From a virus, in IMG/VR virus record IMGVR_UViG_3300002036_000001, positions 72,506-98,866 of that record: a DNA stretch of 26,361 nt. One strand, 5' to 3'. The notes under the pieces were generated by a model. It searched no databases, had not been told where the DNA came from, and worked only from the letters and a program-made list of their open reading frames with translations. This document shows, piece after piece, positions 382-25,932 of the stretch. A program made the position numbers and the translations under genes. The stretch's first letter is position 1. Every line of letters begins with the position of its first letter.

Positions 382-2013
382 TTAATCTTCTTCTTCAATT
401 ATATCGTCTACTACTATAGGTTGAGGAGGAATATTAGGATAATTATCTAACGTAAATCCACCTATACTTTTATTTACTTTTCTGATATAGTAGTCATAAG
501 GGTTAACCTTTTTATCTGATGAATACCTATTCCAATTAATATACACAGTAGGATTAAATTCTTCTTCGTTTCCTACTAAATCTCCTGAACATGTTTGATT
601 ATATATATATTTATTTCTAGAATCTATATAGTCCAAAACATTTTCTACTAATCTAGGATTTTTTATTTCCTTATATAGTATATTATTAAAATTTATTTTA
701 CTACAAAAGTTTGTACTTGATAATATACTATTTTGGTTATTCTTAATAAAATTAACAATACTAGTACATACAATAAAATAATTCATTATTTTATTAATGT
801 CATAAGTAGGAGTATGAATCCTAAACTCTATTGTTTGTTTATTTCCAAATAATAAAGGAATTAAATTAACCCAATAATATCTAGTTTTTATATTCCATTT
901 ACTTGTACCTTCTGGATCAGAGGGATGAGAATGTATATTACTTAGATCTCCTCCTTCATTTTGGTAACTTCGACCCATTGATAGAAAACTATAAAGAACT
1001 TCAAAGTTTTTCTTTATATTTTTATTATCAATAACCCCATCCATCTTTAAAATAGTAGAATTAATAGGTAAAGGTTTAGTATAATGCTTTCTTTTTACCC
1101 CATAATTATATTTTTTATATAAAGGAAAAAGTTCAAATATAGAATCTTGTATTACTGTTAGTACTCTAAAGGCAGCTATAAAAAACTCTTCTGTTCTAGG
1201 AATATTCCCTATATGAAGATGCAAAGCACATGTTTCATCATATAAAGTCCTCTTTTTCAGTTGCTTTACTGTATCTACAATAGTTTGTACTCCCTTTTTT
1301 CCTTCTAGAGGAATTGTTACATATTCTAATCCTTTTACACTACCATCTCTTAGAGGAATTAATCCTAGATTTTTAACAATTCTAGGAGGAACCATTCCTT
1401 TAACTGTTTCAAATTCTAACCCAAATGTAAGACCTTTTGCAACATCTCCATATTTTTTTACTGCCTCAGTATATTTAGGAGAGTAATTAGAATGATAATA
1501 TTCAGAAGCTGAATTAGTTTTTCCTTTAGAATCGTATGATAAAGTATTTTTATAATTTAAATCACAATGCTTTATATCTGTGAATTCTATAGTATCTAAA
1601 GAATATTTATTATAATAATTTCCTGATGAAAGTTGTTCTTTATAAATAGTTCCTTTAAAAATTTCATTATCAAAACATTGATAAGTATTTCCATCAATAT
1701 GTACTAGTACTAAATCCTCTTTTTCATATTTTTTAGAAAAACTTCCAAATATAGGATTATTCGATTTATCAAAACCAATTACTCCTTTAACAACCATTAA
1801 AGATTTATCTTTAATAATATATTTTTTTATTCTATTATCAAAATAAATATATCCAGTATGTTGTTTATAATACTTATCATTTATTTTATAACAATCTCCT
1901 GAATTTTCTATATTTACATCTCCAATTTTATAAAATTCTCCTCTTATTGTTCTACATTCTTTTTTTGGAAAAGTTTTTCCACTTACTGTAACTACAGTTT
2001 TTATATCTTCCAT
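382..2013 (-). CDS. putative amidoligase (COOH-NH2 ligase fold)
   Basis: Motifs TFGLEFET, DGSV..LEYVT.PL, CALHLHIG, RY.WVNL, TIEFRIH. Confidence 0.85.
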   Translation of the reverse strand: MEDIKTVVTVSGKTFPKKECRTIRGEFYKIGDVNIENSGDCYKINDKYYKQHTGYIYFDNRIKKYIIKDKSLMVVKGVIGFDKSNNPIFGSFSKKYEKEDLVLVHIDGNTYQCFDNEIFKGTIYKEQLSSGNYYNKYSLDTIEFTDIKHCDLNYKNTLSYDSKGKTNSASEYYHSNYSPKYTEAVKKYGDVAKGLTFGLEFETVKGMVPPRIVKNLGLIPLRDGSVKGLEYVTIPLEGKKGVQTIVDTVKQLKKRTLYDETCALHLHIGNIPRTEEFFIAAFRVLTVIQDSIFELFPLYKKYNYGVKRKHYTKPLPINSTILKMDGVIDNKNIKKNFEVLYSFLSMGRSYQNEGGDLSNIHSHPSDPEGTSKWNIKTRYYWVNLIPLLFGNKQTIEFRIHTPTYDINKIMNYFIVCTSIVNFIKNNQNSILSSTNFCSKINFNNILYKEIKNPRLVENVLDYIDSRNKYIYNQTCSGDLVGNEEEFNPTVYINWNRYSSDKKVNPYDYYIRKVNKSIGGFTLDNYPNIPPQPIVVDDIIEEED

Positions 2014-2026
2014 TTTTAAGAATTAT

Positions 2027-3892
2027 TTAGTTTGTTTTTTTCTCAATTTCTATTATTTTACTTGTACTTTCTATAAAATTAGATAATAGTTTCATAACAG
2101 AATCTCTTTTTTCATTAGATTTAAAATTAGATAATCTTTTTATTACAATAGGAAACAATTGATAAGGCTCTAATAAAGTTTCTTCTATTAATTTTTCTAA
2201 TCTATCATTCTCTATATTATCTTTTTTAGTATTTTCTTCTTTTTCTAAATCATCCACTACTGTGTCTAAATTTTTACTAGCAGGGAGTTCTATTACTTTT
2301 ACATCATCTATTTTTGCTATATTTGTTATTCTAGTACAATTACCTTTATCTATTTCATATATTTTTTCAGCATTTAATGGACTAATAATTCCTGTAAATA
2401 ATTCTCCTCCATAGTATATACTTTGTCTATTAGAATCCTTATACTTATAAGACATGTCTATAATAGGATGAACCGTACATAAAGATAAAGAACTAACATC
2501 AAAAGGCATTCTCTCTTTTTTTAAACTTATACAAGCATCAAAATCTAACTGAGTTGATATTCTTGCTCCTTCAAATATATAAAAGAAATATCTTGATATG
2601 TCTGTTATTTCTTGATTCTTATTATGAACAAAGGGTATAAATCCTTTTTTAGAATTTTTTTTATTTTTTTGAAAACAATTATTCTTAAAAGGAATATTAA
2701 CTAAAGACCAAAATGTATTTTCTGCTTCTTTAGTATTATCTCCTAATTTATAAAATCCATAATTAGTTATCCAAGCATATACTCCTGTAATAGTATGTCC
2801 ATTTCTCCAATATCTTAATTTATTAAAATAAACTTTACCTTTATAATCTTTTAGATCTTTTAAAGTCTTTTCGTTATAAATATTCTTCTTATCAGATAAA
2901 CTTGAAGAAGATATATTGGTAGAAGTACCTTTACTCTTATCAAAATTTATAGTATCATACCCACTACATGCATCATAATTAGGATATGTTCTACCATAAT
3001 TTTGATGATAATTTTGGTATCTATAAGTTTTTAAATGATGACAGTTTTTTCTACTTATACTAAACTTAGTAGCTTTTTCTACATTACCATCTACTATCCT
3101 ATAGACTACATTATGTGAAAACTCACCTATAGTATCTGGATTTCCTCCTATAGCTATTAAACTATCTTCTATAGAAGAAATATATAAACTATTTCTTGTT
3201 TCCTTATAATAAAATAAAGGTCTTTCTTGATATATCACATCTCCTTTATCAGTATTATATTTTTTAGAAGCACCATGGTAACAGTAAATTACATTAGGTT
3301 CTCTAGTATCTGTAAAAACTAATGCAGCAGCTCCGTTATATTTACTAAGAACCTTATAATTACTATTTTTATAAATACATTCTAATAGTATTTCACTATC
3401 TATTTTGTTCCTAGTATTACCTTTTGATAAAGTTTGAACTTCATCTACATTAAAATCTTTTGCAAGATCTTTATAATTTAAAAGAGATCCATTATGCACT
3501 CCTATAAAAGAAAAACCATCATTATTAAACCCGAATCCAAATGGATGTGCATTATCCATTGTATTTGCTCCCACTGTACTTTTTCTAGTATGACCAATAA
3601 CTACAGGAAAATTAATAGGTTTATCATAGTCAATATTAGATAAGAAATCTCTATATGCTTTTTCTTTATCTACTCCTAAATATATGTCACCATCTACAGT
3701 AATTCCACAAGAATCTGTTCCTCTAGTTTCATTCATTATTCCTAGAATATCCAATTTTTGTTTATTGAATTTTTTAGTAGATTTACCTGCCCATGCAAAT
3801 ATTCCACAATTTAATTGATTTTCTTTAACTCCAAAAATAATTTTTCCTAAAGTATCAATTGCTAATAATATTAATATTATGCTAATTATCAT
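2027..3892 (-). CDS. class II (Ntn) glutamine amidotransferase with N-terminal hydrophobic extension
   Basis: CGIFA, RGTDSCG, GHTRKST, NAHPF, HNG, DSE, RPL motifs. Confidence 0.88.
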   Translation of the reverse strand: MIISIILILLAIDTLGKIIFGVKENQLNCGIFAWAGKSTKKFNKQKLDILGIMNETRGTDSCGITVDGDIYLGVDKEKAYRDFLSNIDYDKPINFPVVIGHTRKSTVGANTMDNAHPFGFGFNNDGFSFIGVHNGSLLNYKDLAKDFNVDEVQTLSKGNTRNKIDSEILLECIYKNSNYKVLSKYNGAAALVFTDTREPNVIYCYHGASKKYNTDKGDVIYQERPLFYYKETRNSLYISSIEDSLIAIGGNPDTIGEFSHNVVYRIVDGNVEKATKFSISRKNCHHLKTYRYQNYHQNYGRTYPNYDACSGYDTINFDKSKGTSTNISSSSLSDKKNIYNEKTLKDLKDYKGKVYFNKLRYWRNGHTITGVYAWITNYGFYKLGDNTKEAENTFWSLVNIPFKNNCFQKNKKNSKKGFIPFVHNKNQEITDISRYFFYIFEGARISTQLDFDACISLKKERMPFDVSSLSLCTVHPIIDMSYKYKDSNRQSIYYGGELFTGIISPLNAEKIYEIDKGNCTRITNIAKIDDVKVIELPASKNLDTVVDDLEKEENTKKDNIENDRLEKLIEETLLEPYQLFPIVIKRLSNFKSNEKRDSVMKLLSNFIESTSKIIEIEKKTN

Positions 3893-3895
3893 TTT

Positions 3896-4696
3896 TTATA
3901 AATTTATTAATTCTTTTTTTAATTTTTCAATTTTTGCTATTAGTACAATTGCTTTTTCTTTATTATTTAAATTAATACATTCTTCTATATCATCAGAATA
4001 ATTATTAATTATATAATTTATAACACCTGTATTTACTAATTCAATAGCTTCCATGGTTTTATTAAAAGCCCATTTCATAAGTTTATCATTTACTATCCAA
4101 AAATTTGATAAACTTCTATATTCTACTCCATAGTTTTTAAATCTAAAACTACCAGCTTTACCATACATTTCTTTTCTTCTATCATCTTTGTCCAAATTAA
4201 TAGATTCTAATCCAAGTACAGCATCCATAGCATATATAATCTTTTCACTTACTTCTTGAGAAGGATTATCATACCCTATATGAATATGTCCTCCACAAGT
4301 CCTTAATCTAGTATCACTACTAGGGGCAGAGTTTATAGATTTTGAATAAACATTAAAATCAGGCTCACATCCAAATTGCTTTGCTTGAGGAGTTTCTAAA
4401 AATCTTTGATCTAATTCTGCTGATGCACTATAATTTAAAGAACATCCTTGTAATTTAGAAAGAATTTCTAAATGATTTTTTACAAAATTCATATTGGTTA
4501 CAAAAGATTTTACATCAACACAAGCAGGAATATTAAATTCTACCATAACATTATCTTCTTGTATAGCATGTCCTTCTTCACTAATTTTTTTAGGTTCTAA
4601 TTTTGTACCTCCAATTAATCCTTCTGCTGAAATTATTTCTCCATTTTTTTCAAGAAACAATTCAGGATCGCTTCCTATTTTTATATTTTTTAACAT
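3896..4696 (-). CDS. phiEco32-like COOH-NH2 ligase type 2
   Basis: IGSDPELFL, QEDNV..EFNIP, FGCEPDFN, RTCGGHIHIG, RR..YGKAG.FR...YGVEYR.LSNFW. Confidence 0.9.
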   Translation of the reverse strand: MLKNIKIGSDPELFLEKNGEIISAEGLIGGTKLEPKKISEEGHAIQEDNVMVEFNIPACVDVKSFVTNMNFVKNHLEILSKLQGCSLNYSASAELDQRFLETPQAKQFGCEPDFNVYSKSINSAPSSDTRLRTCGGHIHIGYDNPSQEVSEKIIYAMDAVLGLESINLDKDDRRKEMYGKAGSFRFKNYGVEYRSLSNFWIVNDKLMKWAFNKTMEAIELVNTGVINYIINNYSDDIEECINLNNKEKAIVLIAKIEKLKKELINL

Positions 4697-4721
4697 TTTA
4701 TTATTTTTAAATTTATAATTT

Positions 4722-5408
4722 TTAATTTAGTATATTGTAAAGTAAATCTGTACATACTTGTTTATAAGGAGTACATGCGTCTGTATATTCAGGATGACCT
4801 TGTATACATAATTCCTTTTCCTTATATATAATTATTTCAGGTTCCTTAAACTTATCTTTTAATTCTATTTCTGAATTATCTCCGTTTAAATAAGTAGTGC
4901 TTAAATATCTTTTACTCCATCCTACGATTTTATAAGGAGAACTTCTTTTTGTAGGAAGCATCATTTGATGATGACTTGAAGTAGCTTTACAAGTATATAT
5001 ACGATCAATTTCATGTAATCTTACATGTATATCATGTTCTGTATTATGTCCATTTACATGTTGAATTAATTTTCCTCTATTTAATACAGTAAGAAGTTGT
5101 GCACCTCTACATATACCTAACTTAGGAGTATGTCTAAACATTTGATATATACTTCTCTCTAAAGTATCTCTATCAGTATCTATAAGAGTATGTTTTCCAG
5201 TTTTTTCTCCATAAAGAGCTGGAGAAACATCAGAACCTCCTGTAAAAACTAATAAATCTATACTAGAGGCTTTTTTATATGTCTCAGACTTATTATCTAT
5301 CATGTCTTTCATATAATAAACATTTATATCTCTTTTAAGTCTATTTAAAAATATTAAATAATCATTATTAAAGTAAGAATCTACTAATATATTTAACTTT
5401 TTATTCAT
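4722..5408 (-). CDS. class I glutamine amidotransferase / peptidase C26 family
   Basis: FTGGSDVSP..YG, LGICRGAQ (catalytic Cys), SSHHQ, QGHPE. Confidence 0.9.
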   Translation of the reverse strand: MNKKLNILVDSYFNNDYLIFLNRLKRDINVYYMKDMIDNKSETYKKASSIDLLVFTGGSDVSPALYGEKTGKHTLIDTDRDTLERSIYQMFRHTPKLGICRGAQLLTVLNRGKLIQHVNGHNTEHDIHVRLHEIDRIYTCKATSSHHQMMLPTKRSSPYKIVGWSKRYLSTTYLNGDNSEIELKDKFKEPEIIIYKEKELCIQGHPEYTDACTPYKQVCTDLLYNILN

Positions 5409-6282
5409 TTTTTTTATATTTATTTATTAATAATTTAGGAATTATTTCTATATATTTAATAAGAGTCTTTTCTCCAAAAGAAGGTGCAGAATTTATTTCT
5501 ACTATTATAAATTTAGGATCTTCCCTAATTATTCCTTCTTTATTTTTAGAAGATTGTATTCTTAAATCTATTGCACCAAAATCTAACCCCACAGCTTTTA
5601 AAGCTTCTACGCTTTCTTTTACTATAATATCCCAATTTTTAGGTTTATCAAATTTTTCATTATCTTCCATAAACCATACACAATGGTCATTATTTCTGTA
5701 CCATCTTTTTTCTTCTGGAGTATCCTGCTTTAACATCTTTCTACAAGTGTAAAAACAACCTTCTTCTGTAACATGTAATCTATACTCTCTATTATAATTA
5801 TAGAACTTTTCAAATATATAATCTTTTAATTTATCTCCTTTTTGTTCTATAAATTTTAGTAAAGAATCTATATTATCATGCTTTATATTTCCTTTACCTC
5901 TACTTCCAAATATATTTTTAGAAATAATTGGAAAAGGTAAATCAGATAACTCATAAGGAGCTTCCTCTGAATTATTTTCTAAGAAAAAAGCATGACTGCC
6001 ATCCCATTCTCCTCCATATGACCACCAATCTGCTGTAATAATATTATTATTACTAAAGCAAGTCTTCATTAAACCTTTGTTTGCACTATTTTTAATAGCC
6101 TGAATAGTATTTAGTTCTATTCTATTTCCACCATTTGTAACAGAATCTTTCATATCTGTAAAAGATCCCAACCTAACAACAGATTTAAAAGGTAAAAAAG
6201 GAAAAATACCCTTTTCTCTTAATGTATTATGAGAAGGGTGTCTACTTCGTATTCTAGGTAGAAATTTAGTGTATTTAGACAT
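5401..6282 (-). CDS. ATP-grasp ligase
   Basis: EYRLHV, GLDFGAIDL, IIVEINSAP motifs. Confidence 0.88.
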   Translation of the reverse strand: MSKYTKFLPRIRSRHPSHNTLREKGIFPFLPFKSVVRLGSFTDMKDSVTNGGNRIELNTIQAIKNSANKGLMKTCFSNNNIITADWWSYGGEWDGSHAFFLENNSEEAPYELSDLPFPIISKNIFGSRGKGNIKHDNIDSLLKFIEQKGDKLKDYIFEKFYNYNREYRLHVTEEGCFYTCRKMLKQDTPEEKRWYRNNDHCVWFMEDNEKFDKPKNWDIIVKESVEALKAVGLDFGAIDLRIQSSKNKEGIIREDPKFIIVEINSAPSFGEKTLIKYIEIIPKLLINKYKKNE

Positions 6283-13976: not shown

Positions 13977-14687
13977 CTAGATGTCACCATCTAGCGTAGC
14001 TTTTATTATTAAATATTTCTTTTTAAATTTCCTTTCAGTTTTAATACCTTTTGATATTTCACTTGGAAAGTAACCAAAATATTTTGCACAATCTTGTAAT
14101 GAATTAAAAACTTTATATACTTCATTTGTATTAATATTTTTAACTATAACTTTTTTGCACATATAAGAATTATCTTTTTTAGATTTAACATAAGGATTTA
14201 ACGATTTTTTATAATCTAATGACCATAAATACCCTCCTCCTTTATTATAAGTTCCATTTAAAAATCTACAAATTGTAGATTGACTTATATTATTATCAAG
14301 ACAAGCTTGTTTTATATAATCATATTTTTTAATAAATGTACCATCTAAACTATATTGATATATTTCTTTACCTGTAATTATATTATTAACCACATCTTTT
14401 ATGAAGTTAAATTCAGGTTTTAAATTATTAATATAAAATTGTTCTCTTTTTATAAGAATATTTTTATCACAAAATTCTAATATAATATATATAAAATTTT
14501 TAGATTTATTTTTATTCCAAGAATTCTGTAAATAATCATTATGATGTTTATTATTTCTTAACATCATTTTATGATTAATAATTCTATCATAAATATTTTT
14601 TGAACTTCCTATATATTTTTTTTGGTTTTTTAAATTTAAAATACAATAAATACCTGATTTTTTACACTGTTTATTTAATTTTTGCAT
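13977..14687 (-). CDS. GIY-YIG homing endonuclease with NUMOD1-like repeats, in L1 of intron 1
   Basis: SGIYCI..L.N.K.YIGSS.N...R...H, REQFYI, PEFN; C-terminal IYQYSLDG.FIK.Y...A..GGY.W and FNSL..CA repeats. ATG 14687 preferred over TTG 14708, which is part of the promoter. Confidence 0.92.
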   Translation of the reverse strand: MQKLNKQCKKSGIYCILNLKNQKKYIGSSKNIYDRIINHKMMLRNNKHHNDYLQNSWNKNKSKNFIYIILEFCDKNILIKREQFYINNLKPEFNFIKDVVNNIITGKEIYQYSLDGTFIKKYDYIKQACLDNNISQSTICRFLNGTYNKGGGYLWSLDYKKSLNPYVKSKKDNSYMCKKVIVKNINTNEVYKVFNSLQDCAKYFGYFPSEISKGIKTERKFKKKYLIIKATLDGDI

Positions 14688-14705
14688 AAATTTTTTAATT
14701 TTATA

Positions 14706-14736
14706 CAAAAATACGAAATTTTTATGTAAATGTCAA
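14706..14736 (-). promoter_or_regulatory. Bacteroidota sigma-A-type promoter for the homing endonuclease
   Basis: TTG (14734-14736), 20-nt spacer, TATTTTTG (14706-14713) matching -33 TTG / -7 TAnnTTTG. Confidence 0.7.
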
Positions 14737-15778: not shown

Positions 15779-17749
15779 TTAGTGATTCCAATAAGTAGTA
15801 ATTACTGCATCCGCTTTTAAAGGTATAGTAGTACACCATACTCCTCCTGCTTTTTCCATACATTTTTCTAGATACTCAGCAGCTAATTTTGTATATGAAT
15901 TATGAACCTCTAAGTTTATTTCATCATGTACTAAATTAGTGATAGATACATAGTTTTGAAGATTATTTTCTAATATCCATCTTCTAAATAATATTGCAGC
16001 AAATTTTGTGATACTTCCTGCTGCTCCTTGTATAATATAATTAAGACAAGCTCTTTCATATTTTCCTTTTAAAGTATAATAACTTCTCCAATCTCCTATG
16101 TTTTTAAATTCTTTAAGCTTATCAAAGTCTTTAAAATAAAACTTTCTCTTAGTAATAGGATCTATTTCTATAAATCCTCTCTTCATAGATATTCTAATTG
16201 TTTCATCAAAAAACTCTCTTAATCTAGGAAATGCTTCAAAATAAGAATTATATATTTTTTCTCCTTCTTCTTTGGATACTCCTAAATTATTAGAAATAGT
16301 ATATGCATTACCTCCATAAGCTAAAGCAAATACAACTGTTTTAGTTATTTGTCTTTTATCAGAGTGATTAGATTTTATTTCTTCTAAGGTTAATCCTTCT
16401 AATTCTTTAAAGATTTTTCTAGCATTAAAACTATGCATATCTGTAAAACCCTTATGATAAAACTCTAACAGATCTGGATCTAAGGAAGTGTTTACTAAAC
16501 AAATATTTTCTTGACCACTATAATCTGCATTAACAATTTTATAATTATCAGGAGAATTAAAAGCTGATCTAAATTCTTTAGTAGCAGGAATATTTTGTAA
16601 ATTAGGATTTCTACTAGATATTCTACCTGTATTTAATATTTGCCTATAATTACTATGTAATCTATTTGTTATAGGATTAACGTGCTTAAAGAAATCTATA
16701 CCAAAAGTAGAACATGATTGATCTTTTTCTCTAAATTTAATATACTTCTTTAAAAATACTAATTTATCTTCTTCTATATTCTTATTCTTAGTGTTTAAAG
16801 AACTTATTAAAACTTTTGATTCTACAGTATACGTTAATTTTTTAGTTGTCTTAGATACTTCCATAGGACATATATCTAAAAACTTAAAAAACTCTATAAC
16901 TTGTTTAGATGATGTCCATTTTATATTACATTTTATTTCATTACTAAACAAATCTAATTGTCTTTCTATGAAATTAGAATCCATATAATTATCTAATACA
17001 AATTTATTTAATTCTTTTTCTAAATTTACTTTTTCTATAAGATTATTTTTATAAGTATTTTTCCAAATATCTTTATCAAAATGTATCCCTTTATACTCTA
17101 TTTCCCCTAATACAAGAAGAAATTGCATCTCTAATGATACACATTTTCCTAGTTGTTTAGTTTCTATATCTATTTCTTGTTGTTCTTTAACTAAAATAGG
17201 ATATAAAATATCTTCTGCACCATATTTTATTTGAGAAACTGTAAATTTTTTATCTTTTATTTCTAAAAATTCTAATGCAGTAGTCTTATCTACTTCTACT
17301 CCTAGATACCTTTTATTTAATTCCTTTAAAGAATTGCTTAAATTATATCCATTAAATAGTATCTGTTCTACAATCATTGTATCATAAACTTTATTTAGTC
17401 TAGTTTTGCAATTATGTAATATATGTAGATATTCAAATTTTAAATTTTGACCTATAATAATAATAGAAGGGGAACTAAGTAAAGGATATAACATAGATAT
17501 ATCTGTACATCTAAAGTCTATTATATATTGTCTATTTTTAGTACCTAATTGAACCATTACTATACTAGAAAGATATGGATCTAACCCTTCTTTTTCATAC
17601 TCTCCTCCAAATTTTCTTGTAGTTTCTATATCTAATGATATTTCTTTTTCATCTTTTAGATAATTATAACATTCTAGAACAGTTGAAGATTTAAATTCTT
17701 CATATTTTATATCTCCTATAAAATATATATTAAATTTTTCTTTCATCAT
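15779..17749 (-). CDS. polA: family A DNA polymerase with 3'-5' exonuclease domain
   Basis: LDIET exo I, TGRISSRNPNLQNIP, motif A ADYSGQE, motif B RQITKTVVFALAYG (Phe at the 762-equivalent), NYIIQG, motif C VHDE. Confidence 0.96.
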   Translation of the reverse strand: MMKEKFNIYFIGDIKYEEFKSSTVLECYNYLKDEKEISLDIETTRKFGGEYEKEGLDPYLSSIVMVQLGTKNRQYIIDFRCTDISMLYPLLSSPSIIIIGQNLKFEYLHILHNCKTRLNKVYDTMIVEQILFNGYNLSNSLKELNKRYLGVEVDKTTALEFLEIKDKKFTVSQIKYGAEDILYPILVKEQQEIDIETKQLGKCVSLEMQFLLVLGEIEYKGIHFDKDIWKNTYKNNLIEKVNLEKELNKFVLDNYMDSNFIERQLDLFSNEIKCNIKWTSSKQVIEFFKFLDICPMEVSKTTKKLTYTVESKVLISSLNTKNKNIEEDKLVFLKKYIKFREKDQSCSTFGIDFFKHVNPITNRLHSNYRQILNTGRISSRNPNLQNIPATKEFRSAFNSPDNYKIVNADYSGQENICLVNTSLDPDLLEFYHKGFTDMHSFNARKIFKELEGLTLEEIKSNHSDKRQITKTVVFALAYGGNAYTISNNLGVSKEEGEKIYNSYFEAFPRLREFFDETIRISMKRGFIEIDPITKRKFYFKDFDKLKEFKNIGDWRSYYTLKGKYERACLNYIIQGAAGSITKFAAILFRRWILENNLQNYVSITNLVHDEINLEVHNSYTKLAAEYLEKCMEKAGGVWCTTIPLKADAVITTYWNH

Positions 17750-20263: not shown

Positions 20264-20527
20264 TTAATTACTAATTAATTTATTTAATTCTTTTAATTCT
20301 ATATTTAACTTTTTTATTTTATCTTTAGTTTCTACTATAACTTCTTTAATAGTTTGACCACTTGGATTTTTAGTACATAATAATTCTATTAAAGATTTTT
20401 TAGTCATTATCATACATGTTCTTAAAGATTTTTCTATAGTCTCTAACCATCTTTCTTGCTTCTTAATTTTTAATTCTACTTCACACTTATTAACAAAGTT
20501 CATATTTATTTTTATATTCTTTTCCAT
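20264..20527 (-). CDS. hypothetical coiled-coil protein
   Basis: 87-aa ORF. Confidence 0.6.
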   Translation of the reverse strand: MEKNIKINMNFVNKCEVELKIKKQERWLETIEKSLRTCMIMTKKSLIELLCTKNPSGQTIKEVIVETKDKIKKLNIELKELNKLISN

Positions 20528-20975
20528 TTTTTATTATTTTTAGTGATTCTTGTAACCCTTTTTCTAGAGCTTCTTCGTACGTTTTAAAATCCCTTTCTAA
20601 GTCAGAATTAGAATAAGATATAAGAGGTATATACTTTCCTTTAGTATCAATATCTGTACCTACTTTAGATATTTCATAATCCCACACTACTAAATCTTGA
20701 TAAGTTAAAAAATCAGATATACTTATTGTAATTTTATATTCTTCCCTTAACCATTTTTGTAATAACGATTGAGTAGGTGCTCTAAATTCATTTATATTAT
20801 AAAAAGTATCTTCATACCCTTTCATATTTTTAAACTGACTTAACCAATTTCTATTATCTTTTTTTATGTCTTGATATTTTGGCGTATTGTAATAAAATAC
20901 ACAATTTTCATTAAACCCTAATTCTTTAGCTAACTTAGCTGTTTCAAAACTTACTAATTGTAAGGTAGATCTCAC
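20490..20975 (-). CDS. hypothetical protein, SFETAKLAKELGF/APTQSLLQKW family copy 1
   Basis: Motifs shared with two paralogs in the window; GTG start uncertain. Confidence 0.7.
   Translation of the reverse strand: MRSTLQLVSFETAKLAKELGFNENCVFYYNTPKYQDIKKDNRNWLSQFKNMKGYEDTFYNINEFRAPTQSLLQKWLREEYKITISISDFLTYQDLVVWDYEISKVGTDIDTKGKYIPLISYSNSDLERDFKTYEEALEKGLQESLKIIKNGKEYKNKYELC
20913..20956. repeat. 44-nt exact repeat, copy 1
   Basis: aaaccctaattctttagctaacttagctgtttcaaaacttacta, also at 25021-25064 and 26318-26361. Confidence 0.95.
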
Positions 20976-21384: not shown

Positions 21385-21406
21385 ATTGTTATTTTTTAGC
21401 TATATA

Positions 21407-21454
21407 AATAAACTATAGTATATATAGTATATATAGTATACACTATAGTTTATT
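21407..21454. repeat. inverted repeat enclosing tandem TATAGTATA units
   Basis: aataaactatagt (21407-21419) / actatagtttatt (21442-21454). Confidence 0.8.
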
Positions 21455-21496
21455 ATATTTCTTTTTTGCTACTTTTTTCTTTGTTAAATGTTATTT

Positions 21497-21712
21497 TTAA
21501 ACTATTAATTTCTTCTTATCGTACTTACCTCTTTTAAAAACTTGTTTTAAATATTGATTCTTGTGATAGCTTAAAGGCTTTATATCTTCAATCTTTTTAA
21601 TTCCCTTTACAGAAATAGTTAATTTTTCTTTTTTTATATTATCTTGTTTTTTTTGTGCATTTATGTTATTTATTCCAAATAACATAATTAAAAGTATAAT
21701 AAAATGTTTCAT
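21497..21712 (-). CDS. small secreted protein
   Basis: Signal peptide ending NINA-Q. Confidence 0.65.
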   Translation of the reverse strand: MKHFIILLIMLFGINNINAQKKQDNIKKEKLTISVKGIKKIEDIKPLSYHKNQYLKQVFKRGKYDKKKLIV

Positions 21713-21722
21713 AATATTCTAT

Positions 21723-21909
21723 ATTAATTTATAATGTGTTGTTACACCAAAAGGCTTCATTTTTCAATGCTGAGTATTTAACTCAGTTTCCTCTATTTAT
21801 CTACCGTAATACTAGCAATCAATCTTTTACCAATTGCGCCTTCTTACCTGTAGTAGTGACCTACTCTTTAAAAGATGGCTACTTTCAAGCCTACTTTTTA
21901 GAAACTAAT
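21723..21909 (-). ncRNA. putative structured RNA resembling 23S rRNA H43-H44 (uL11-binding site)
   Basis: GUAGGCUUGAAAGUAGCCAUCUUUUAAAGAGU...GGUGUAACAACAC, closed by AUUAGUUU/AAAUUAAU; intergenic. Confidence 0.65.
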
Positions 21910-21919
21910 TTAATAAATA

Positions 21920-22075
21920 TTAATCTTTGCCATCGTCTATAGTACCAGCATCTGCACCTCCTGTTAAAGAGTTTAAATCCTCTTGTTCTTCTTCTACTAC
22001 TGTATCATTAGTAGGTGTACAAGATGTTGCAAAAAATACTACAGTTAATAATAATATATATTTTAATAATTTCAT
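21920..22075 (-). CDS. 51-aa acidic lipoprotein
   Basis: MKLLKYILLLTVVFFATS-CTPTNDTVVEEEQEDLNSLTGGADAGTIDDGKD; lipobox; not in the ORF track. Confidence 0.75.
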   Translation of the reverse strand: MKLLKYILLLTVVFFATSCTPTNDTVVEEEQEDLNSLTGGADAGTIDDGKD

Positions 22076-22134
22076 AAGGGTTAATTTAATTTGTTAATAA
22101 TTTGTTTGTTTACTTTTAATTTATTTATATTTTA

Positions 22135-22395
22135 TTATTTACAATTAATACTAAAATATAAATTATCTTCAATATGTTCTTTTTCTACCTCATCTTCACA
22201 ACCGACTTCTTCTTCTCCTAGTATTACTTCTGTAATTACAGGTGGTTTATGTTGTTGAACTGTTCCAGCAGGTTCAATTTTTACAGTTATTTCATATAAT
22301 GTTCTTGTACATTCACAATCTGTAGTATTATCATCATTTTGACAACTTGTTAATGTGATAATTGAAAGTACTAATAATATTAATAAATTTTTCAT
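22135..22395 (-). CDS. Cys-rich lipoprotein, paralog A
   Basis: LTS-CQNDD lipobox; CECT, GC.DE, terminal C. Confidence 0.8.
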   Translation of the reverse strand: MKNLLILLVLSIITLTSCQNDDNTTDCECTRTLYEITVKIEPAGTVQQHKPPVITEVILGEEEVGCEDEVEKEHIEDNLYFSINCK

Positions 22396-24218: not shown

Positions 24219-24689
24219 CTATTTTTTAATTCGTATTAAATGTGGAGCTATTCCAACACCTTTACCATCAGAAATATCTTGTATGGTTAATTCTACAATT
24301 TCTTTTTTAGGTAGTTCTTTAGCATATTCCCATGGAACACAGATAAGACTATTCTTAGATTCTTTTAATGTTTCAGACCTATTCCAAGCAATATATTTAT
24401 TTTTCTTTTTAGCGAATACAACTCTTTTATACCAATCACTATTATTATTATTACTAACCAACATTACCCTTTCTTTAAAAGGTTCTTCTGGTAGTTCGAT
24501 TATATTAATATCTTTTGTAGATATTGATGGTAAATTGTACCAAAAATTAAATTTTCCTTTTATCACTCCATAATAGGAATTTATACTATGTCCTTTATAT
24601 CCAAGAGTATTCACACCTTTAGATTTAAAAAATTCTATTACTTTTTTACTATGTTCTGTATCAAGAACTTTAATTACTGTGTTATCCAT
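24219..24689 (-). CDS. hypothetical protein
   Basis: 156-aa ORF. Confidence 0.75.
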   Translation of the reverse strand: MDNTVIKVLDTEHSKKVIEFFKSKGVNTLGYKGHSINSYYGVIKGKFNFWYNLPSISTKDINIIELPEEPFKERVMLVSNNNNSDWYKRVVFAKKKNKYIAWNRSETLKESKNSLICVPWEYAKELPKKEIVELTIQDISDGKGVGIAPHLIRIKK

Positions 24690-25932
24690 TTTTTATTATT
24701 TTTAGTGCTTCTTGTAGTCCTTTTTCTAAGGCTTGTTCGTATTTAAGATAGTCATATGTTTTACCTTGATCTAATATCACATTCGTTCCATCTTTATAAC
24801 CTACGCAATAATTAAACTTCTGACTGGTATATAAAGCGATTGGAGCGTCTACATAAATACCATGTTTCTCCCTTAACCATCTTTGAAGTAATGATTGGGG
24901 TGGTGCAGACATACTCGTAGGATTATTACTATTTTTATGCTCCTCGTATCTCTCACATCTATATAAACCAAGCTCTTTTGTAATATCATTATATCCATAA
25001 AAATCCACACATTCGATATCAAACCCTAATTCTTTAGCTAACTTAGCTGTTTCAAAACTTACTATAATATGAGCTTTAGTAATATTAGTTTTCAACTGTT
25101 TAGTTCTCGACACGATAGAATTTAATACAACAAAAGCTTTCTCTTGTTCATCTTTATCCATACCTTTCAGTACACCAAGTAATTTACTCTTCTCGTCTTT
25201 ACCGTAAGGTTGTCCTTCCGCTAGTTTCTCGATCAATCCTTTCTCCTTTTCTTCTCCTAAGTTTTTCAAATGCTTAAATACTTCGTAAGTAGCTACTACA
25301 TCTCTTTCGCAATACTCAGATATCCTTTGAATATTATTCTCAGGGTCTTTCCAGAAGTACTTAGGTACGTCCTTTCCTTGCAAATCTTGTTTAGGAGAAG
25401 GTAATCCTAAAACCGTACTGATTCCTAATAAAGATGATCTGTTAAAACTTGTTCCTTGCCATAATTCTTTAGTGTCTAATATCCAATCCATTGTCCACGG
25501 TTTTTCTCCTGACGTATCCATCAAAGGATGGGGTCGGAGATTATGAACATATCCTCGCTGTGCGATATAAGGGATATCAAATTGTTTAATAGCGTGACCA
25601 CATAACTTAATAGTACTTTTAACACTTTCTAACATTGCGTAGAATTCACTTATTAATTTATCTTCTCTAAGGTTATTAAACGTCTTAGTTTGAAATCCTT
25701 TTTTAGATAACATACCTACAGATATACATACTATTCTACCGAATTCTGGATAGAGAGCAGCTTCTGTAGCGTACATATCGATTAGTTCTTTGTCTGTCTC
25801 ACCGTTTCTTCTCTTCTTATACTCCCAAGAATCGAACAAGGGAGTATCTAGTTGTAATTCACTAACTGTAGTAGAGGTTTCGATGTCTAAGAATAGAACA
25901 TTTTTTAAATCTATTTTATCTAGTACTTTCAT
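24682..25932 (-). CDS. DEDD 3'-5' exonuclease (PolB-exo-like) fused to SFETAKLAKELGF family copy 2
   Basis: FLDIET, GHAIKQFDIPY, LDT, YCERDV; C-terminal ~125 aa paralogous to 20490-20975. Confidence 0.85.
   Translation of the reverse strand: MKVLDKIDLKNVLFLDIETSTTVSELQLDTPLFDSWEYKKRRNGETDKELIDMYATEAALYPEFGRIVCISVGMLSKKGFQTKTFNNLREDKLISEFYAMLESVKSTIKLCGHAIKQFDIPYIAQRGYVHNLRPHPLMDTSGEKPWTMDWILDTKELWQGTSFNRSSLLGISTVLGLPSPKQDLQGKDVPKYFWKDPENNIQRISEYCERDVVATYEVFKHLKNLGEEKEKGLIEKLAEGQPYGKDEKSKLLGVLKGMDKDEQEKAFVVLNSIVSRTKQLKTNITKAHIIVSFETAKLAKELGFDIECVDFYGYNDITKELGLYRCERYEEHKNSNNPTSMSAPPQSLLQRWLREKHGIYVDAPIALYTSQKFNYCVGYKDGTNVILDQGKTYDYLKYEQALEKGLQEALKIIKNG
25021..25064. repeat. 44-nt exact repeat, copy 2
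   Basis: Identical to 20913-20956. Confidence 0.95.

Follow-up and report, generated by a model that had tools for sequence, protein, structure and literature searches.

A stand-alone phage RNA that resembles the GTPase-associated centre of 23S rRNA and carries a domain inserted into helix 44

Introduction

Why should a phage genome carry, between two small open reading frames, a stretch of DNA that reads like part of a ribosomal RNA gene? The question was raised by a window of 26,361 nt (the whole stretch of DNA that was analysed; positions 72,506 to 98,866 of IMG/VR virus record IMGVR_UViG_3300002036_000001). An earlier reading of the letters by a model, hereafter the sequence-only reading, had proposed that the window encodes an rRNA mimic, in which the parts of 23S rRNA known as helices 43 and 44 (H43 and H44) are joined to an inserted domain, and which could act as a decoy for uL11, stringent-response factors or defence toxins that target rRNA. 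Positions below are those of the window, and four-digit base numbers are those of the equivalent positions in E. coli 23S rRNA.

A fragment of 58–60 nt covering E. coli positions 1051–1108 is used in studies of uL11 and thiostrepton. Binding by the C-terminal domain of uL11 is stabilised by thiostrepton and Mg2+, and uL11 is required for the activation of RelA. In the E. coli ribosome, C1072 forms a pair with C1092 as well as a hydrogen bond to G1099, and the contact of G1071 with the G1091-C1100 pair is of the same kind (PMC2952862). Another study, citing Blyn 2000, states that uL11 reads the folded domain and not the linear sequence (PMC6239185), and the factor-binding centre has been described as the H43/H44 region together with the sarcin-ricin loop (SRL) (PMC2330231).

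Results and Discussion

The element and its parts

The minus strand of the window encodes a self-closed RNA of 187 nt (21909–21723, in the direction of the strand), carried by a crAss-like phage. It occupies 187 of the 207 nt between two ORFs (21920–22075 and 21497–21712), both on the minus strand, and its G+C content is 32–37% compared with 10–25% in the flanks. The parts of the element and its two neighbours are as follows.

21723–21909, minus strand: whole RNA element, 187 nt, approximately equivalent to E. coli 23S positions 1044–1115 plus the insert; matched by covariance model R1 over 21725–21909
21898–21909, minus strand: 5′ strand of the outer stem, an H42-like closing helix (1044–1055), 11 of 12 positions paired with 21734–21723
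21872–21896, minus strand: H43-like hairpin (1057–1081), with a stem, the U1060/U1078 mismatch and a 9-nt loop, UUGAAAGUA, containing G1067 and U1072
21867–21871, minus strand: junction triloop UUAAA (1082–1086), closed by U1082-A1086, a pair that covaries in the family
21863–21866, minus strand: GAGU (1087–1090), 5′ strand of lower H44; G1087 is assigned to pair with C1102, and U1090 with A1101
21752–21862, minus strand: inserted domain, 111 nt, with no E. coli counterpart; closing helix AGGU (21862–21859) with GCCU (21755–21752)
21837–21815, minus strand: hairpin A of the insert, loop UGGUAAAAG
21800–21789, minus strand: conserved 12-mer of the insert, AUAAAUAGAGGA, common to locus L086
21786–21770, minus strand: hairpin B of the insert, CUGAGU-UAAAU-ACUCAG
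21769–21758, minus strand: hairpin C of the insert, with a GAAA loop
21748–21751, minus strand: UUUG joiner between the insert and G1091, with no E. coli counterpart
21735–21747, minus strand: upper H44 hairpin and 3′ strand (1091–1103), GUGUAACAACACA, with the U1092-A1099 pair, loop ends G1093/A1098, and A1095
21723–21734, minus strand: 3′ strand of the outer stem (1104–1115), paired with 21909–21898
21920–22075, minus strand (context): 51-aa ORF on the upstream side, bearing a lipoprotein-like signal and ending in a stop codon 11 nt ahead of the RNA
21497–21712, minus strand (context): 71-aa ORF on the downstream side, starting with an ATG 11 nt beyond the RNA and having an N-terminus like a signal peptide

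All of the strings quoted in the sequence-only reading were found on the minus strand, GUAGGCUUGAAAGUAGCCAUCUUUUAAAGAGU at 21894–21863 and GGUGUAACAACAC at 21748–21736, and the 23S H43-H44 sequence that it gave agrees with an actual E. coli 23S gene (L055). Its insert of about 110 nt with an AGGU/GCCU closure measures 111 nt (21862–21752) and retains the closure in a minimum free energy fold of the insert alone, and the hairpin CUGAGU-UAAAU-ACUCAG was located at 21786–21770. The closing stem, described there as 8 bp, is present but longer, with 11 standard pairs over 12 positions and a single C/U mismatch.

Resemblance to 23S rRNA

With the insert and joiner removed, 35 of the 47 positions equivalent to E. 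coli 1057–1103 are identical to E. coli 23S rRNA, and the consensus of the phage family described below equals E. coli at 41 of the 47 core positions. The resemblance to rRNA is far beyond chance. A blastn search of E. coli genomes with the window's own motif gave no seed, and the motif of a relative was needed instead; the 5′ half of this relative matches the 23S rRNA in all 5426 E. coli genomes at about 94% identity.

When compared with the bacterial GTPase-associated centre (the top of H42, H43 and H44; E. coli 1051–1108), the order of elements is identical. The U1060/U1078 mismatch, the 1082–1086 triloop, A1088 and the G1093/A1098 loop ends are all common to both, as are the 1071/(1091-1100) and 1072/(1092-1099) base triples, the latter covarying as in the solved structure (PMC2952862). 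The phage RNA differs in being a separate gene of 187 nt, with its own closing stem in place of the continuation into domain II, and in having H44 broken after U1090 by the 111-nt domain and UUUG. It also has A1101, where E. coli has U1101, and unlike E. coli rRNA it shows family-specific pairs, such as A1058-U1080 in the subgroup of the window, while A1067 is not conserved in the phage family.

The element is not a fragment of an LSU rRNA gene: an insert breaks H44, the helix runs for 12 positions before it closes, phage ORFs lie on both flanks, and the virus record is complete. The sequence-only reading had suggested a check against Rfam and LSU rRNA, and neither gave a match. The bacterial LSU rRNA model (RF02541) found nothing at the Rfam gathering score on the window, or at E ≤ 10 on 21400–22200. 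The other models of Rfam 15 were equally silent on the window at gathering score, with only chance-level matches at E ≤ 10 on 21400–22200, and two relatives gave nothing beyond annotated tRNAs. The chance-level matches, in the window and the two relatives, were to miRNA and snoRNA models and to DUF805b (12 bits against a gathering score of 35.6).

A family of phage RNAs

The window gave no match to phage records by megablast. A blastn search of GenBank phages with the element gave matches, in the H43-like stretch only, to large phages that are unrelated to one another (Acinetobacter phage ME3, Aeromonas phage 4_4572, Ralstonia phage RSP15, a Vibrio phage and Yersinia phage fHe-Yen9-04), in each case between genes and without annotation. 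Two of these were inspected; both are split in the same way, and their inserts measure about 220 and 260 nt. Further cultured carriers found by blastn, again at unannotated sites, are Pseudomonas phages pf16, Astolliot and UNO-G1W1, Serratia phage BF, several Erwinia jumbo phages, and the phages XbC2 and XacN1 of Xanthomonas, GAP32 of Cronobacter and CBB of Pectobacterium.

The IMG/VR collection was searched by two independent pattern scans, one with an exact 17-mer from the 5′ half and the other with a degenerate pattern for the 3′ half. Each scan constrains a single half and so samples the opposite half without bias, with the proviso that both patterns demanded the trailing GAGU. The 17-mer was found at at least 51 loci, 47 of those listed having the full 5′ consensus, and nearly all of the listed loci also had the 3′ half, 62–291 nt downstream. 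The 3′ pattern was found at at least 120 loci, and a fuzzy search then placed the 5′ half upstream in 85 distinct cases. Together the scans located at least 132 elements with at least 113 distinct cores. Among the elements listed, the insert varies in length from 24 to 365 nt while the insertion point is fixed. A UUU(G/A) joiner is present in 34 of the 34 members found via the 5′ half, where the 3′ side was loosely constrained. In bacterial genomes the 3′ pattern gave mostly chance matches; both halves were present in just 14 of 120, mostly on MAG contigs, so the family is essentially phage-borne. Carriers include T4-like, jumbo and crAss-like phages, and their hosts extend from Proteobacteria to, probably, Bacteroidota.

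Thirty-three short-insert phage members, with the window left out, were aligned (alignment A1), and a covariance model was built from this alignment and the assigned structure (model R1; 157 positions, 24 pairs). R1 matches the window at 21725–21909 on the minus strand over model positions 1–157 of 157, at 93 bits (E about 7.9e-27, from a shortened calibration), and this is its sole match in the genome of 98,866 bp. For comparison, it scores 74 bits on the ME3 copy, 90 bits on the 4_4572 copy and 48 bits on the genuine H43 region of E. coli. The window RNA has the family architecture throughout, with GAGU (21866–21863) followed by the insert (21862–21752), UUUG (21751–21748) and G1091 (21747), and an outer stem that closes the RNA on itself directly below the G/A1055-C/U1104 pair.

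The window RNA is a well-formed but atypical member. It has G1067, A1068 and an outer stem rich in A-U pairs, lacks tRNA neighbours, and is carried by a crAss-like phage. Full-text searches of 8.1 million open papers and bioRxiv gave no description of such a phage RNA. The elements constitute a large RNA family that was found neither in Rfam 15 nor in this open literature, and we regard them as a new kind of phage RNA.

Secondary and tertiary structure

In alignment A1, 93.9% of the cells at the 24 pairs are paired, compared with 67.0 ± 1.2% in shuffled alignments (0 of 500 reach the observed value) and 36–60% when the partners are slid. Changes on both sides were found in 19 of the 24 pairs, and the covariation score was 0.697 versus 0.177. 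Every helix of the model covaries across the relatives collected, which was the check on homologs proposed by the sequence-only reading. Four pairs illustrate the pattern among the 113 listed cores.

1058-1080: paired in 113 of 113; A-U 42, U-A 39, G-C 26, C-G 3, U-G 2
1064-1074: paired in 113 of 113; C-G 102, A-U 8, G-C 2
1082-1086 (triloop closure): paired in 110 of 113; U-A 80, C-G 21, A-U 9
1092-1099: paired in 112 of 113; C-G 72, U-A 36, U.G 4

In the same cores, the nine innermost pairs of the outer stem are 77–100% paired; the number of pair types at each ranges from two to six and is usually five or six, and sliding the partners by one column reduces pairing to mostly 35–57%. Double changes are seen in A1 at each of the four insert-closing pairs, which adjoin GAGU on one side and UUUG on the other; this supports the AGGU/GCCU closure in the window. 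GAGU itself is invariant in the 113 listed cores, the scans having demanded it, so covariation is impossible there and its pairing is taken from rRNA.

Base 1072 is the same as base 1092 in all 113 listed cores. The triple occurs as C with C-G in 72 cores, U with U-A in 36, U with U.G in four and C with C.A in one; the window has U1072 (21881) with the U1092-A1099 pair (21746/21739). Both of the main states are present in four of the five insert subtypes, indicating that the 1072/(1092-1099) triple has switched repeatedly. The other triple, 1071/(1091-1100), is G with G-C in 111 of 113. The position 1060/1078 mismatch is U/U in 103 and U/C in 8 of the 113, and A1077, A1088 and G1093/A1098 are retained. 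As in rRNA, there is no constraint on position 1061 in the family (PMC6239185). Base 1067 is A in 82 and G in 29 of the 113, being G in the window, and positions 1096 and 1097 are variable. What the family preserves is therefore the fold, together with the groove of H43, and not the loop bases touched by factors and thiostrepton.

The covariation of the helices, of the 1082-1086 pair and of the 1072/(1092-1099) triple shows that the mimicry reaches the three-dimensional fold. The secondary structure and at least one tertiary contact of the uL11-binding domain are conserved in a self-closed RNA, and the proposal of a phage H43/H44 mimic with a domain inserted in H44 is backed by both the family covariation and the base triple. 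As a point against, a nearest-neighbour fold of the whole element, a calculation that ignores tertiary contacts and protein, gave an alternative pairing of AGGCUU with AAGCCU at −41.4 kcal/mol versus −20.3 kcal/mol for the rRNA-like fold.

The inserted domain

Folded alone, the window insert forms the AGGU/GCCU closure and a long arm with hairpin A at its tip, then hairpin B and the small hairpin C. Hairpin A has a 9-nt loop (N-G-K-U-A-A-N-A-G) and lies about 25 nt into the insert. The module is present in 13 of 112 distinct inserts, about 10 of which have 4–5 flanking pairs; the stems differ each time yet still pair, so hairpin A is a real module. Locus L086 shares the 12-mer AUAAAUAGAGGA with the window and has an equivalent, compensated hairpin B. 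Close relatives that might show covariation in this type of insert were sought in IMG/VR; the DNA polymerase query found none, and a neighbouring 161-aa protein led to one locus, without the RNA.

The recurrent types of insert include an SRL type, a type with GGGGAAGGAC..AGUAC, a type with CACCCC..GGUAAGG and a covarying hairpin, and the hairpin A type of the window. The smallest inserts are plain hairpins of 24–25 nt (L134, L066). Comparison of all inserts with E. coli 23S rRNA gave the SRL as the single outstanding site. The sequence UAGUACGAGAGGA, identical to the SRL, occurs in six loci, and an SRL-type hairpin (AGUAC-GNRA-GGA, within two mismatches) occurs in 12 of 112 inserts compared with one in the reversed inserts. 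Among these hairpins the stem takes six different forms, which covary, and the tetraloop is GAGA or GGGA. The window does not belong to this subclass, its insert having no SRL hairpin within three mismatches. Another candidate rRNA copy, CCGUAACU, is present in E. coli 23S near position 1686 but was rejected, as the surrounding hairpins differ.

As a separate observation, the loop of hairpin A resembles the H44 loop GUAAUA; this is a resemblance only.

Genomic setting

The source record is given as 100% complete (98,866 bp, 26.2% G+C). The window carries a cluster of amidoligase, glutamine amidotransferase, COOH-NH2 ligase and ATP-grasp genes, and a set of replication genes (primase, DnaB-like helicase, homing endonuclease, DNA polymerase I and a separate 3′–5′ exonuclease). 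The DNA polymerase is about 30% identical to those of the crAss-like phages cr108_1, cr111_1 and IAS virus, which marks the carrier as a distant crAss-like phage, and its host is probably a member of the Bacteroidota. The RNA is absent from four reference crAss-like genomes (crAss001, cr108_1, IAS virus and phi14:2).

Most relatives lie in a different setting. At 78 of the 132 listed loci a gene for tRNA or tmRNA lies within 500 nt, without exception on the strand of the RNA. Many of these genes are separated from the core by just 10–20 nt, on one side or on both, a spacing that makes release by tRNA-processing enzymes likely at such loci. The window RNA lies instead in an operon of small ORFs, and ARAGORN found no tRNA or tmRNA in either the window or the whole genome. 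Neither neighbouring ORF (51 aa, 21920–22075; 71 aa, 21497–21712) has a PHROG match. Promoter-like sites (20) were not in excess of shuffles (15.3 ± 4.1), and no terminator-like site flanks the RNA; in DNA of 26% G+C both scans carry little information.

No protein gene recurs generally beside the RNA. The largest cluster of neighbours is TerD-like (11 of 132 listed loci), and the remainder are homing endonucleases and lineage-specific genes. A phage-encoded uL11 was not found in five carrier records, by a search that detected 14 of 14 controls. Taken together, the absence of uL11 from the five carriers and of a recurrent neighbour protein indicates that any protein partner is host-encoded.

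Possible function of the RNA

The reading that we favour is that this is a stand-alone structured phage RNA that rebuilds the uL11-binding centre, is bound by host uL11 and imitates the site away from the ribosome, which on balance seems probable. The two ends of the RNA would meet to restore a GTPase-associated centre (the top of H42, H43 and H44), the rebuilt parts being the H43 stem with its U/U mismatch, the 1082–1086 triloop and the 1071 and 1072 base triples onto H44. The closed outer stem would stand in for the rest of the ribosome, and the variable domain would interrupt the 5′ strand of H44, after U1090 and before G1091. The RNA would presumably be transcribed with the surrounding early or replication-module genes and, folding like the ribosomal domain, would be bound by host uL11 through recognition of the fold. 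Isolated rRNA-domain oligonucleotides are able to bind their ribosomal ligands (PMC3496166). One consequence might be that the RNA soaks up uL11 and weakens the uL11-dependent activation of RelA, although such titration is conjecture; another might be that it occupies the proteins that dock on the uL11/H43-H44 site, such as factors, RelA or ribosome-directed toxins.

A wider version of the proposal is tentative and, in our estimate, has the odds against it. In this version a free replica of the factor-docking site, with the uL11/H43-H44 domain in every case and the SRL added in some lineages, would capture both host uL11 and either translational GTPases or RelA, and so rewire translation or block the stringent response or a ribosome-directed defence; it would be a new class of viral counter-measure by rRNA mimicry. 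It is also unlikely that the RNA, either bare or coated with uL11, serves as a decoy for an attacker or sensor of the factor-binding site (a toxin, a stringent factor or a GTPase). We know of no defence toxin that targets H43/H44, the contact base A1067 is not conserved (the window has G), which argues against a pure factor or thiostrepton decoy, 1096 and 1097 vary, and the window RNA has no SRL hairpin. Yet some relatives join H43/H44 to a sarcin-ricin hairpin with a covarying stem (12 of 112), which fits imitation of the factor-binding site and keeps a factor decoy under consideration. Isolated SRL RNA binds EF-G and IF2 with micromolar Kd (PMC3496166), and the sporadic distribution of the family, including its absence from the four reference crAss-like genomes, is like that of an accessory gene. 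For the window copy, with A1067 variable in the family and no SRL present, uL11 capture is the best single guess.

The variable insert could itself be the working part, with the rRNA-like fold, perhaps bound by uL11, serving to protect and present it. Inserts of 24–365 nt in several conserved subtypes at one fixed point are what such a scaffold would show, but the core is far more conserved than any insert, some members have a mere 24–25-nt plain hairpin (L134, L066), and the rRNA features kept outside the helices, among them the U/U mismatch, A1088 and the triples, would be superfluous in a scaffold; this role is improbable. The RNA ends 11 nt from the ATG of the 71-aa ORF (21712–21497) on the same strand, as a cis-acting leader placing that ORF under the control of uL11 might do. 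However, 78 of the 132 listed relatives have genes for tRNA or tmRNA beside them instead of ORFs, often on both sides at about 10–20 nt; the 71-aa product, without a PHROG match, is not a ribosomal protein; and none of the r-protein leader families in Rfam was matched, so that a leader function is very improbable. Least credible, to the point of near dismissal, is that the locus is functionless, decaying host 23S rDNA or a protein-coding region (a 68-codon antisense ORF, 21736–21942 on the plus strand, overlaps the element). The high identity to rRNA would suit a remnant, but compensatory changes in all helices, the self-closing stem, the fixed insertion point, conservation over more than 100 unrelated phage contigs and the lack of an LSU rRNA match would not. 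The A1058-U1080 and U1090-A1101 pairs, unlike E. coli rRNA, are common to the ME3 and 4_4572 copies, and the variable length of the insert rules out a conserved reading frame. Both the cis-leader reading and that of dead rDNA or an antisense ORF are poorly compatible with the family data.

If capture of uL11 by the rebuilt centre holds, no natural mimic acting in trans and copying a folded rRNA domain would precede this one, which is present in very different phages. It would raise the question of what a virus gains from a second uL11/GTPase centre, and the answer could bear on the stringent response, the control of translation factors or anti-phage defence. The family also provides more than 100 natural variants of a classic model system for RNA folding and antibiotic binding, and culturable carriers (Acinetobacter phage ME3, Aeromonas phage 4_4572, Ralstonia phage RSP15, Pseudomonas phage pf16, Serratia phage BF and Cronobacter phage GAP32) make experiments feasible.

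Comparison with known RNAs

Leaders of r-protein operons, such as the L10 leader (RF00557) and the L1 site on the L11 operon mRNA, are likewise RNAs that imitate an rRNA site off the ribosome. They are short, partial mimics that act in cis before the cellular r-protein genes they regulate, whereas the phage RNA is a near-complete copy of a folded domain, is mostly found in tRNA arrays, does not precede r-protein genes and has no Rfam match. An autoregulatory leader of this kind (e.g., RF00557) was rejected as an identity for the window RNA, given the lack of an Rfam match and a downstream ORF (71 aa, signal-peptide-like) without a PHROG match.

Most family members are small RNAs inside phage tRNA arrays, and in this they are like rnaC and rnaD of T4 and the tRNA and tmRNA genes of phages; the window, without tRNA or tmRNA, is unlike these stable RNAs of tRNA clusters. 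T4 RNAs C and D were considered as relatives and rejected, there being neither the motif nor an R1 match in the tRNA/rnaC/rnaD region of T4.

A further parallel is synthetic. In the 'ribosome-in-pieces' work, oligoribonucleotides copying the thiostrepton (GTPase-associated centre) domain and the SRL bind EF-G or IF2 off the ribosome (Munishkin and Wool 1997, cited and measured anew in PMC3496166). The phage RNAs resemble these free-standing copies of the two sites, but appear to be their natural equivalent, and in some relatives both pieces are present in one molecule.

Insert features of related RNAs

In some members of the RNA family, the 23S rRNA sarcin-ricin loop (SRL, H95) is reproduced within the insert. 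These copies lie about 200–225 nt into inserts of 310–356 nt, and are distributed among the IMG/VR loci (L-numbers) as follows:

SRL copy UAGUACGAGAGGA: inserts of L057, L073, L083, L098, L109 and L146
SRL copy with 1–2 changes from UAGUACGAGAGGA: inserts of L094, L103, L113, L124, L141 and L160

The tetraloop is GAGA or GGGA, and the stem occurs in six different versions. Since these relatives hold the H43/H44 copy together with an SRL copy, they mimic the two halves that make up the factor-binding centre of the ribosome. The RNA of the window has no SRL copy.

Another conserved insert module, CAC-CCN-(UAAC or GAAA)-N'GG-UAAGG, is found about 30 nt before the UUUG joiner, and its middle pair covaries (G.U, U-A, G-C and A-U). 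It is absent from the window, and is carried by the following loci:

CAC-CCN...N'GG-UAAGG module: L002, L003, L011, L074-L078, L087, L090, L107, L115, L125, L131 and L149

Among the matches listed from the scan of IMG/VR with the degenerate 3'-half pattern (at least 120 loci), there were 19 in which the 5' half was not recognisable. L120 seems to have an additional hairpin (CCGGAGCAAUCCGG) that interrupts the H43-like stem on its 3' strand, some 80 nt before the 3' half of that RNA; this would make a second insertion point in the RNA family.

Genomic context

The commonest neighbour of the RNA is a TerD-like protein of about 200 aa, found at 11 of the 132 loci (e.g., L109:4230-4829, and likewise at 10 others). 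All are from related large phages, and the presence of the gene probably reflects their lineage and not a partnership with the RNA.

The window belongs to a complete crAss-like phage genome (98,866 bp, 26.2% G+C). In most carriers of the family the RNA sits inside tRNA arrays, whereas this entire genome has no tRNA genes. The RNA is missing from four reference crAss-like genomes (crAss001, cr108_1, IAS virus and phi14:2).

Other features of the window are:

21409-21452: near-perfect palindrome AAACTATAGTGTATACTATATATACTATATATACTATAGTTT, 44 nt, A+T only
15779-17749 (-): DNA polymerase I domain
24682-25932 (-): 3'-5' exonuclease
13977-14708 (-): homing endonuclease
382-6282 (-): modification gene cluster (amidoligase, two glutamine amidotransferase-like proteins, COOH-NH2 ligase, RimK/ATP-grasp-like protein)

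The palindrome lies about 45 nt past the stop of ORF 21497-21712 and might act as an operator or origin element, or form a terminator-like hairpin; Rfam returned only chance matches to miRNA models.

The polymerase domain and its exonuclease are encoded by two genes with about 7 kb between them, and the homing-endonuclease gene is near this split pair. The C-terminal domain of the exonuclease (residues 290-415, phrog_12005) is present again as a free-standing duplicate, ORF 20490-20975.

The modification cluster, the peptide/metabolite-modification gene set known from several phages, includes an amidoligase of 543 aa and a RimK/ATP-grasp-like protein with the PHROG label 'ribosomal protein S6 glutaminyl transferase'. 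Its COOH-NH2 ligase shows 40–44% identity to counterparts in N4-like and crAss-like phages.
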